Assembly: GCA_034117325.1 (NCBI GenBank) | Contig: JAXEPX010000009.1 | Location: 3,208-67,207 of the forward strand | DNA from: Phascolarctobacterium sp. | GTDB taxonomy: Bacteria > Bacillota > Negativicutes > Acidaminococcales > Acidaminococcaceae | Length of the DNA: 64,000 nt | Reading direction: 5' to 3' | Shown here: positions 27,389 through 34,597 of the stretch, piece after piece | Numbering within the stretch: position 1 is the first letter of the stretch | Layout of the letters: every line of letters starts with the position of its first letter | Notes under the pieces: model-generated | The model's input: only the letters and a program-made list of their open reading frames with translations | Told to the model about the DNA's origin: nothing | Databases searched by the model: none | Program-made: the position numbers and the translations under genes

Positions 27389-27533
27389 GGTGGGGCTCCT
27401 TGTAGATGGTAAAAATATGTTTCTTTTTTCGATTAACTATGCTATAATATTCGTGGTGCTACTGTAACGGTAGGTGGTTGCCCTCTGATAAGGAGGGCTG
27501 AGCAGCCCTCTAAAACGAAGGAGGGTGGTAGCT

Positions 27534-27623
27534 ATGAGCTTTTCTGAAGTAATAGATTTATTGAGACTATTAGTCGAAGTATCTTCTTTAGTAGTTTTGT
27601 TAGCGATAAATGCAAAAAAATAA
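27534..27623 (+). CDS. Type I toxin-like hydrophobic peptide, 29 aa MSFSEVIDLLRLLVEVSSLVVLLAINAKK (absent from ORF track)
   Basis: RBS AAGGAGGG; single TM helix with C-terminal KK; extended -10 TGCTATAAT at 27440-27448; 5'/3' UTR long-range pairing. Confidence 0.8.
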   Translation: MSFSEVIDLLRLLVEVSSLVVLLAINAKK

Positions 27624-27704
27624 CCGCCCAGCCTCAGAAACTAGCGGTTATTTTTTGTAACTTGTAAGTCATGAGGGCAACCGTCTATCGGTAGCACCTT
27701 TGCT
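27614..27704 (-). ncRNA. Cis-encoded antisense antitoxin RNA (~90 nt)
   Basis: Minus-strand promoter TTGCAG(27739-34)-17-TATAAT(27716-11); terminator AAAAAATAACCGC...GCGGTTATTTTTT at 27614-27656. Confidence 0.72.
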
Positions 27705-27716
27705 ATAATCATTATA

Positions 27717-27749
27717 CAGCTTGCAGAATAAATCTGCAAGCTGTTTTTT
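27717..27749 (+). terminator. Terminator of the toxin mRNA, overlapping the antitoxin promoter
   Basis: CAGCTTGCAG-AATAAAT-CTGCAAGCTG plus T6. Confidence 0.7.
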
Positions 27750-27755
27750 ATATAA

Positions 27756-29923
27756 TTAGAATGCCCATTGAGCGTCGATGGCACCGCCGATACCGCGTTG
27801 CTTGCCGAGCCAACCGGTTACGTTGAAGTCCAGGCTCATGTTCTTGCCGGACTGCAGCTTGTAGCCAGCCTCGATAATTGCGCTGTGGCCCTGCAGGGAC
27901 GGAGTGGGAGACTCAATGCCGTTGATTGCAGCCTCTGCGTCGCCGCCGAATTCATACTGCCATGCCAGACCTGCGTACGCTGCACTCTTCTCGTTAATAT
28001 CGGAGGTGTAGCGGCCGCCCAGACGGATGCGGTGGGAGTTCAGAGAGTCGAAGTCCACTGCTTCGCCCGTAGCGAGAGTAGCGTCGGAGTCAGCGATATG
28101 GGTGAAGTAGTAACGGCCATAGAGGTCGAGGGAAGCCTTCTCCGTGTAGCTGATTTCCTTGCCTGCGCCGAGGGTGAGGCCGTAGTAGGTAGCACTGTCG
28201 TCGTAGCTGGTAGCTGCGGATTTGTAATCGCTCTTTACTCTGCCAGCACGCAGGCTTGCGTCATAGTGTACGCCGTTTGCGTTTTTAATCTGGCCAAAGA
28301 GTACGCCGCCGGTGGACTTAATATCGCCCTCGCCATGAACAGCGCCGACATAGGAGTCGTAGTCGCCCCTGCCATGCTCTACAGCTACGCCGTAGGTAGC
28401 ATTGCCAGCAGTCTTCGCAAAGCCCACTGCTGCGTTCCAGCCGTCCACATCCACATGGGAACCGGTCTCATAGCGGGAATTGCTGCCGCCCACTGCTACG
28501 AAAGGAGCGAACGCTGCGTCCTTATCCTCGCCTGCAGCTGCCTTAGCCTGCATCATACCGGAGCTCAGCATGAAGTCGGTCATATTGTTCACTACATAAC
28601 CTGCAACTGCGCGGGTCTCGACTACGGATTTACCGTTGTCGTTAACAGTCCCTTCGTGGATTTCTAGGTTGATAGACTTTTTATCTTCGGAGAGAGTAAG
28701 TTCAGCTTCGTAGGAAATGGTAGCGCCTTGATTGAGAGTGCGGGTTTTATTCTCTACGCTGTCAAAGCCATCAAATACACCGTCGGTATACTCATCATTA
28801 TCCAAAACATCCTCTAGATTTTCTTTGGCAATCAAAGCAATGGTCTTATTGGCTGCATTACCGCTAGTGCCTGCGAGAGTGATGTCGAATTTATTGGGAA
28901 TTTTTTCAGAAATAGATGTAGTATTATCATCTGAAATCTTTAGCATGGAGTCGCCATCAGTAAAGGGATTGGTGATAACAAAGTTTAAAGATTTTTCTGC
29001 CTCGATATCTCTAGCTTGATTGTTAAAGTTGGCAATATATAAATCGTCGCAACCATAAACGTGGTTTTTGATTATAGAGCCATTAGCGATAGCAATTTTG
29101 TTACCTGTAGCAGCACCGTTTTCAGAATAACCGCCGACAAGATTGTACCCTATCTTGGAATTTGATACGATAACTATGTTGTTATTGGCTGTTTTATCTG
29201 TTTCTTTAGAATAACCACCAAAAACTGAATCATCTGTTTTGGAGTCAATTATTTTAACAATGTTGCCGTTAGCGTTGCCCTTGTAAGAGATGCCGCATTT
29301 AATGTTGTATACAGTAGCGTTAGTAATGGTAACGGAGTTGCCATTAGCATCGCCCGTCCCCGCGGCATAGCCGCCATAAACCGTTTTTTCAACCTTAGCG
29401 CCATTAGTGATAGTAACAGAGTTGTCATTAGCATCGCCAGAGCCTTCAGCATAGCCGCCATAGACCGAATTAGTTACCTTTGAATTATTTATTTCCACAC
29501 TGTTACTGATAACATTACCAGCATCCACAGAACGTGCTCCCGAAACATAGTTGATTTCACTGCCGTTAGAAATAACAACATGGTTATTGGTAGCATCTCC
29601 TTTTATAACAAAGATACCATTAGTATAAGCAAGCTTAGAATTATTAATGATAACTTTGTAATTAGAGAGTTTGTCATTAGGGTCAGATGGTTTCCAGTAA
29701 GCAACCATGCCATAATCTTCATTTCCATCAATAGTGATGGTGTCTGCACTAATTGTTTTATTTGCATCAGGAATACCAGATGTTTCAGCTACGCCAGCCG
29801 CTTGCACCACGCCCGGTAGCACCACTGCAGATGAAAAAATACCAGCGAAAAATAGTTTAGTTATTTGCCCCCCCCCAATTTTCTTTGTGCTTGTTTTGCT
29901 TTTAATTTGCTTAAGAATGTCAT
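27756..29923 (-). pseudogene. Autotransporter (type Va) adhesin, frameshifted at a poly-G tract in the signal-peptide region (phase OFF)
   Basis: RBS AAGGAGG plus ATG 29923 runs into TAA after G9. G10 gives MTFLSKLKAKQAQRKLGGGQITKLFFAGIFSSAVVLPGVVQAA in frame with the 689-aa ORF. Beta-barrel ends ...IDAQWAF. Confidence 0.85.
29868..29876 (-). repeat. G9 homopolymer (candidate slipped-strand switch)
   Basis: Nine consecutive C on the + strand. Confidence 0.9.
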
Positions 29924-30146
29924 AAATATAACCTCCTTGAAGTAATTTCGACCTAGCAGCGCAGCGTTTGCCCTAGCCTCGTAGCGCGCCACTAGACTCA
30001 GGATATACCTTCGTTGCTTATAATATAGCATAAAGCGCACTTCTACACCCCACCCCAACGGCTGATTTTGGGTAGGAAGGAGGAAATTTTTTAGGAAAAA
30101 GCACTGCGTTAGAGTGAAAATTAAAATTTTGCTACGAAAGCTCTTG

Positions 30147-30237: not shown

Positions 30238-34597
<4,360 letters not shown>

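Follow-up and report, generated by a model that had tools for sequence, protein, structure and literature searches.

A 64,000-nucleotide (nt) stretch of Phascolarctobacterium sp. DNA (contig JAXEPX010000009.1; hereafter the window) carries on its minus strand, at 27756-29923, an autotransporter gene with a run of guanines in the code for its signal peptide. In the window assembly the run is nine residues long (G9), and the start codon is out of frame with the body of the gene. The run takes several other lengths on identical flanking DNA from natural populations, and both the lengths that join the start codon to the long frame (ON) and those that do not (OFF) are frequent. We consider it likely that the gene is a phase-variable autotransporter whose run gains and loses residues by strand slippage, reversibly within a clone.

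Reading frame and length variation at the G run

Reading of the minus strand bore out the proposal of an earlier note, made from the window sequence alone, that an ATG at 29923 with a ribosome-binding site (RBS) gives 20 codons and then a TAA (coordinates of all features are in Table 1). The G9 run forms part of codons 17 to 19 of this short frame. The run is followed immediately, in the -1 frame, by 702 open codons that begin QITKLFFAGIFSSAVVLPGVVQAAGV and extend to the TAA at 27758-27756. The same note held that one more G would join the two pieces into a protein of 722 aa spanning 27756-29923, and translation gave exactly this product. When each run length from G5 to G12 was translated in silico, the full protein was obtained at G7 (721 aa) and G10 (722 aa) only, while G5, G6, G8, G9, G11, and G12 led to a stop after 19 to 22 codons. 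The frame arithmetic thus supports an OFF state for the window assembly, brought about by G9 within the signal-peptide code. With the run in frame, the N-terminus reads MTFLSKLKAKQAQRKLGG(G)QITKLFFAGIFSSAVVLPGVVQA|A, a signal peptide of 42-43 residues.

The arrangement of RBS and ATG is found also in the paralogue at locus L003 and in the homologues at L001 and L002. The gene caller had instead produced a protein of 684 aa (P0001) that begins at an internal GTG, 29825, within the signal peptide. We rejected this codon as the true start, in agreement with the earlier note, because it has no RBS, because most of the signal peptide would be lost, and because homologues align from the upstream ATG.

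The run is no chance feature of this DNA. It is the sole G/C homopolymer of at least 7 nt in the 64 kb, the next longest being four G6 runs, and C runs of 6-8 were absent from the window; a first-order model predicts 0.05-0.2 runs of at least 9 nt over the same length. Its codon content is likewise unusual: GGG is the rarest glycine codon in the 43 window genes (7.3%, versus 55% for GGC), and GGG-GGG accounts for only 2 of their 103 Gly-Gly codon pairs, one of which is the tract itself.

The locus was found as Logan contigs in 20 independent metagenome runs (X1-X20), mostly from pig gut and otherwise from other gut metagenomes, one fertilizer metagenome, and two metagenomes without an organism label, and these contigs, which report a single, majority allele per sample, were compared over 551 nt around the run. 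Two lineages emerged. In lineage A, whose flanks show zero substitutions over the 551 nt, the run is G7 and ON in X1, X2, X3, X5, X11, X13, X14, X18, and X19, G6 and OFF in X4, X6, and X17, G10 and ON in X12, G11 and OFF in X20, and G9 and OFF in the window assembly. Lineage B (X7-X10) differs by three single-nucleotide polymorphisms (SNPs), namely ATG to TTG at 29923, AGGAGG to AGGAGT at 29932, and G to T at the first position of the run (29876). The last of these changes Leu to Phe and leaves the mutable run one residue shorter; the resulting T+G7 is OFF in X7, X8, and X10, and T+G6 is ON in X9. The contigs of X15 and X16 end at the run, so that its length could not be read, and contigs also break at the run in X6 and X10.

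With the window included, 11 of the 19 readable assemblies are ON and 8 are OFF. Seven allele states are represented, among them two different ON lengths, and variation is present in each lineage. Four strains with four run lengths differ from the window by 5-22 SNPs over 10 kb, in which indels outside the run are confined to one at 30048 and one probable artefact near a low-depth contig end. At the level of the population, the phase variation that the note had proposed is therefore strongly supported, with ON and OFF alleles common on otherwise identical flanks, and the metagenomes show neither G10 alone nor G9 fixed in all strains, the two outcomes that it had named as refutations. Its choice of G10 as the ON allele was right as to frame, since G10 is in frame and occurs in X12, but the usual natural ON allele proved to be G7, two G's fewer than the window's run.

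These observations suggest the following mechanism. During replication, the poly-G run in the signal-peptide code would gain or lose G's by slipped-strand mispairing. At G7 or G10 the start codon would be in frame and the full precursor of 721 or 722 aa made, which would be exported by Sec, inserted by the β-barrel assembly machinery (BAM), and displayed on the outer membrane. At the other observed lengths translation would end after 19-22 codons and yield no protein, the G9 assembly of the window representing such an OFF variant. Changes between in-frame lengths would leave the mature protein unaffected, because the run encodes two to three glycines in the region that is cleaved off.

The protein and the same design in related genes

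Direct family searches with the window protein found no Pfam match, even at E ≤10, and no match in NCBIfam or among PDB sequences, and we therefore drew its assignment from homologues, a profile search, and the predicted fold. In a large protein collection 289 relatives were detected, and many of those that match the window protein at E values of 1e-50 to 1e-102 carry PF03797, the autotransporter β-domain, and are named autotransporter; some of these come from Phascolarctobacterium. A profile of 19 relatives matches the β-domain of BrkA (E=0.0024). The AlphaFold model, built on 32 relatives, has a mean predicted local distance difference test score (pLDDT) of 85.4 and a predicted template modeling score (pTM) of 0.77. 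Its N-terminus is of low confidence and holds a short helix that corresponds to the hydrophobic core of the signal peptide. Residues ~40-410 form stacked short strands, a β-solenoid with pLDDT mostly >90, built from passenger repeats whose alignment consensus is of the type N.V.I..(G/S)..V...VYGGY. A helix at 412-447 and 12 long strands at 456-703 complete the model. Foldseek against the PDB returned classical autotransporter translocators first: EstA (9e-10), EspP, Hbp, BrkA (template modeling score, TM, 0.80), NalP, and AIDA-I. The chain ends in ...AQWAF with an F that is invariant in 32 homologues, the aromatic β-signal for BAM. Judged by its predicted fold, the window gene is a type Va (classical monomeric) autotransporter, and the identification made in the earlier note is supported by fold and homologues, though without a direct Pfam match. 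The gene product is probably an adhesin-like surface protein of a pig-gut Phascolarctobacterium-like Negativicute.

The signal peptide, judged by eye together with its cleavage site, has a basic n-region, a 20-residue hydrophobic core (ITKLFFAGIFSSAVVLPGVV), and a predicted cleavage at VQA|A, and it exists only when the run is in frame. Its N-terminus is conserved in the homologues P0003 and P0005. At the point where a basic N-terminal extension of 16 residues (MTFLSKLKAKQAQRKL) meets the hydrophobic core, the run encodes Gly2-3.

Comparable runs recur in related genes. The closest homologue (P0002, locus L003) is 53% identical and shares the N-terminus MTFLSKLK...; a second gene group begins MRFLSKIRERQFAKK[WC]GGAYNL.... 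At L002 the run is G6 and out of frame, and the gene caller chose a false upstream GTG start, giving P0004. L004 has an in-frame G5, and L001 and L005 have interrupted runs, also in frame. The L004 scaffold, from a Phascolarctobacterium metagenome-assembled genome (MAG), contains a gap of 100 N exactly at the run (L004:3893-3992), with ~60 nt duplicated on both sides, as would be expected of an assembler faced with run lengths that are mixed; taken with the contigs that break at the window's run, this gap hints at mixed lengths within samples. In a Phascolarctobacterium-like genome labeled Bacteroides sp. CAG:545, a G9 lies deeper in the signal peptide and out of frame (L075:3891), and the run of its relative at L062 is interrupted and in frame. 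Selenomonadaceae and Anaerovibrio autotransporter loci carry in-frame runs of G7-G9 in signal peptides (L019:6091, L037:2182, L080:3878, and L081:3844, where they are G8-G9, and L035:320). Over 79 loci (683 kb) we counted 31 G/C runs of at least 7 nt, 6 of which fall in the first 150 nt of autotransporter genes, versus 0.31 expected (Poisson P ~1e-6).

Other runs lie in front of the genes. Two have the form cttgc-Gn-ACAAGTGTGCTATAAT, namely G6 at L040:3430 (P. faecium DSM 14760) and G8 at L067:3285, and place the run between a TTGC-like -35 and an extended -10 (ACAAGTGTGCTATAAT); a G9 is found upstream of a further Phascolarctobacterium autotransporter gene (L055:771). Runs in promoter spacers suggest that there may be transcriptional phase variation as well. 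The scan of other autotransporters for 5' poly-G that the note had advised thus found such runs to recur in the signal peptides or promoters of related Negativicute genes.

This quick survey suggests that the poly-G mechanism is widespread among Negativicute autotransporters. On balance we are inclined, with no great confidence, to a broader interpretation in which diderm Firmicutes (Phascolarctobacterium, Selenomonadaceae, and Anaerovibrio) would possess an autotransporter "phasome" with poly-G in the signal peptide or the promoter spacer, of an origin independent of its proteobacterial and campylobacterial counterparts, with which gut commensals would vary their surface from host to host. 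In that case the window gene, whose ON and OFF alleles would be circulating in pig herds, would be the first example on record.

Alternative explanations for the variation

The paralogue at L003 serves as an internal control. It occurs in the same runs as the window gene at matching depth (47 versus 43.5, 15.9 versus 18.5, 5.1 versus 6, and 10.8 versus 10.7), which places both genes in one genome. In the four runs tested, the G6 of the paralogue was constant in length, so that homopolymer noise does not account for the different lengths seen in the window gene. A G7 would restore LGGQINKLILAGIFASTVVLPGVAQAA in this gene.

Several observations weigh against a slippage switch. All five assemblies have L003 out of frame, yet an intact frame of 936 codons stands behind its run; being fixed out of frame, it indicates that frameshifts of this kind are, in at least some cases, stable and do not switch. 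The gene could be locked OFF, could switch slowly, or could have become a pseudogene recently. The non-G7 alleles of the window gene all come from contigs of 4-7x depth, every contig of at least 9x having an ON length, and the three G6 calls all come from one study. G9 is present only in the window assembly and in none of the 20 others. The metatranscriptome contigs that we found are three short pieces of the gene body that do not cover the run, and the majority alleles reported by Logan cannot show switching within a clone or its rate. The empty direct Pfam, NCBIfam, and PDB sequence searches described above count on the same side. We think it unlikely that any of the three alternatives below is correct.

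The best placed is gene decay, in which the run is a mere mutational hotspot and alleles that are out of frame are dead ends, drifting as pseudogenes in some strains. The constant out-of-frame state of L003 agrees with it, as do the weakened initiation signals of lineage B, where ATG has become TTG and AGGAGG has become AGGAGT; lineage-specific decay is, moreover, documented for Campylobacter autotransporters (PMC7168839). Decay does not readily account for the frames behind the runs, which are intact over 702 codons in the window and 936 in L003, nor for the presence of both ON and OFF alleles in each lineage. G7 and G10 occur on identical flanks, and getting from one to the other requires passing through OFF lengths. 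The run is also made of the rarest glycine codon, and diverged genes have runs at this same position, which speaks for their maintenance. We regard decay as decidedly improbable.

More doubtful still is an artefact, in which the true run would be a fixed in-frame G7 and all other lengths, the G9 of the window included, would be homopolymer errors. The depth pattern and the uniqueness of G9 speak for this explanation, as does a clearly spurious 1-nt deletion in ligA, near a contig end in X20. Changes of +3 and +4 (G10 and G11) and of -1 in three runs (G6) are, however, atypical of Illumina consensus errors, and X7, X8, and X10 agree with one another. In the same runs the paralogue's G6 and all A7/T7 runs within 10 kb are constant, and five low-depth runs are nonetheless G7.

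The least credible alternative is recoding, in which out-of-frame alleles would be expressed through -1 frameshifting on G GGG GGC or transcriptional slippage, with the run tuning expression: these alleles do need a -1 shift, the run allows re-pairing of tRNA-Gly, and L003 keeps its frame intact though fixed out of frame, but G-only heptamers are poor slippery sites, no stimulatory structure came to light (none was sought), and most strains are in frame, which would be unnecessary were recoding efficient.

Surroundings of the gene and comparison with known systems

Genes neighboring the autotransporter gene are of the housekeeping kind (PcrA/UvrD, LigA, a PP-loop protein, and an EamA transporter). 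The LigA sequence shares 82% identity with its counterpart in an uncultured Phascolarctobacterium, and the autotransporter's nearest genomic relatives are in Phascolarctobacterium, Acidaminococcaceae, and Selenomonadaceae genomes; by both measures the placement in the Negativicutes holds. A scan of GTDB genomes gave best matches of 47-49% identity in Phascolarctobacterium MAGs and did not recover the window's own gene, and a pattern scan for the exact flanks in JGI metagenome contigs returned 0 matches. The window gave no matches in Rfam or tRNA scans. The contig of X5 joins 30335 to 31072, in pcrA, skipping 736 nt with a shorter side of 20 nt; this is probably an assembly artefact or a related-strain variant.

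Table 1. Features of the autotransporter gene, its flanks, and its closest paralogue
Feature	Position	Strand	Basis or remark
RBS AAGGAGG	29938-29932	minus	read from sequence; 8-nt spacer to ATG
Start codon ATG	29923-29921	minus	read from sequence
OFF-state reading from ATG, 20 codons (MTFLSKLKAKQAQRKLGGGK), then TAA 29863-29861	29861..29923	minus	translation
Poly-G run (proposed switch), G9 in window assembly	29868..29876	minus	sequence and length polymorphism in other assemblies
Signal-peptide code when run is in frame	29799..29923	minus	translation and homologous N-termini P0003/P0005
Passenger domain, β-solenoid	28641..29798	minus	AlphaFold model and alignment consensus
Linker α-helix, model residues 412-447, plugs barrel	28533..28640	minus	AlphaFold model and Foldseek
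C-terminal 12-strand β-barrel translocator, end ...QWAF	27759..28532	minus	model, Foldseek, profile search, homologues
Stop codon TAA of long frame	27756..27758	minus	translation
Candidate extended -10 element TGCTATATT, ~100 nt upstream of ATG	30022..30030	minus	read by eye
Hairpin followed by U7, likely intrinsic terminator	27614..27656	minus	folding, -18.5 kcal/mol, z -3.9
Second strong hairpin, without U run	27714-27744	minus	folding, -20.9 kcal/mol, z -7.2
L003 paralogue gene, ENA pig-gut contig	L003:2452-5302		G6 run at L003:2498-2503, homologous site

A scan with the σ70 consensus found no full -35/-10 promoter upstream of the window gene. The candidate extended -10 element has counterparts in homologous upstream regions, which carry TGGTATAAT or TGCTATAAT. 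A second length-polymorphic site, at 30048-30056, lies about 20 nt upstream of TGCTATATT and reads GGGGTGGGG on the minus strand; its promoter-proximal G4 is G3 in X3, X11, X12, and X13. GGGGTGGGG resembles an interrupted poly-G where L040 and L067 have uninterrupted promoter poly-G. The site is part of a 33-nt element (30048-30080; minus strand CCTTCCTACCCAAAATCAGCCGTTGGGGTGGGG) that occurs once in the window and, with 3 mismatches, on other contigs in nearly every metagenome examined. Those contigs differ in depth and hence belong to another locus or organism. Elsewhere the element also lies ~21 nt upstream of TGCTATAAT, and it may serve these loci as a common operator or promoter-upstream element.

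Downstream, the gene, which is monocistronic, has the hairpin that precedes the U7 as its likely terminator. The intergenic region 27389-27755 holds the two strong hairpins of Table 1 plus inverted repeats containing GAGGGC. The hairpin at 27714-27744 is preceded by an A run and could terminate transcription in the opposite direction.

Homopolymer phase variation of surface proteins is textbook knowledge for Neisseria, Haemophilus, Campylobacter, Helicobacter, and Bordetella. The mechanism is known, and what is new here is the taxon and setting, a Negativicute gut commensal. The earlier note was not aware of such switches being well described in Negativicutes, and our full-text literature search likewise found no description of simple-sequence-repeat phase variation for this class, including Veillonella, Selenomonas, and Phascolarctobacterium. 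For gut commensals, inverton-based switching was the sole kind that surfaced in our literature searches (PMC11892184). If the switch operates as we propose, a slipped-strand mechanism would be at work in natural populations of such a commensal. There are practical consequences too: gene callers truncate or mis-start genes of this design, so that pangenome and functional profiles count them as pseudogenes or fragments, and metagenomic reads could yield ON/OFF ratios from which to gauge how surface adhesins are selected, by host immunity or phage for instance.

Among known switches, the Opa proteins of Neisseria have CTCTT repeats in the code for the leader peptide, so that the protein is switched by changes of frame, and changes that keep the frame do not alter its mature form. 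The window gene likewise has its repeat in the region coding for the signal peptide. Opa differs in that its repeat is a pentanucleotide and not a homopolymer, and in that the protein is an 8-strand barrel and not an autotransporter.

The N-terminal extension of the window protein has a parallel in ESPR (PF13018), which also marks long signal peptides with an extra N-terminal segment before the n-, h-, and c-regions and is carried by some of the homologues. We considered the extension as a member of this family and rejected it on finding no PF13018 match; the motif of MTFLSKLKAKQAQRKL is unlike that of ESPR, and the extension is an analogue, not a member.

In Bordetella pertussis, poly-G/C runs in or before surface-protein genes are reported to vary among closely related strains (PMC1891110). 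The β-domain of BrkA gives the best-fitting barrel for the window protein (TM 0.80). B. pertussis differs in being a proteobacterial pathogen. In Campylobacter, capD has a poly-G within its coding sequence and capC has one in its putative promoter (PMC7168839). Both placements are seen again in the Phascolarctobacterium and Selenomonadaceae genes, in the signal peptide for the window gene, L003, L075, and L019, among others, and in the promoter spacer for L040 and L067. CapD and CapC differ in belonging to Campylobacterota, in their prominent lineage-specific decay, and in having no homology detectable beyond the shared barrel fold.

In N. meningitidis, poly-C runs lie within the coding sequences of nalP and mspA (AusI), nalP being ON at 7, 10, and 13 (PMC3723659). 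Their products are, like that of the window gene, classical autotransporters with a coding poly-C/G run, turned ON and OFF by strand slippage, as we propose here. They differ in their proteobacterial host and, for NalP, in a passenger that is a protease. The window's run lies in the code for the signal peptide, whereas those of nalP and mspA are placed in the coding sequence by PMC3723659, which does not use the term signal peptide. The dependence of nalP and mspA expression on tract length has been proven by immunoblot, whereas that of the window gene is predicted from its sequence. The NalP barrel (1uyn/1uyo) is a structural match to that of the window protein at only 12-16% identity in structural alignments, and the ON lengths of the window gene, 7 and 10, are the same numbers that recur in the nalP series of 7, 10, and 13.

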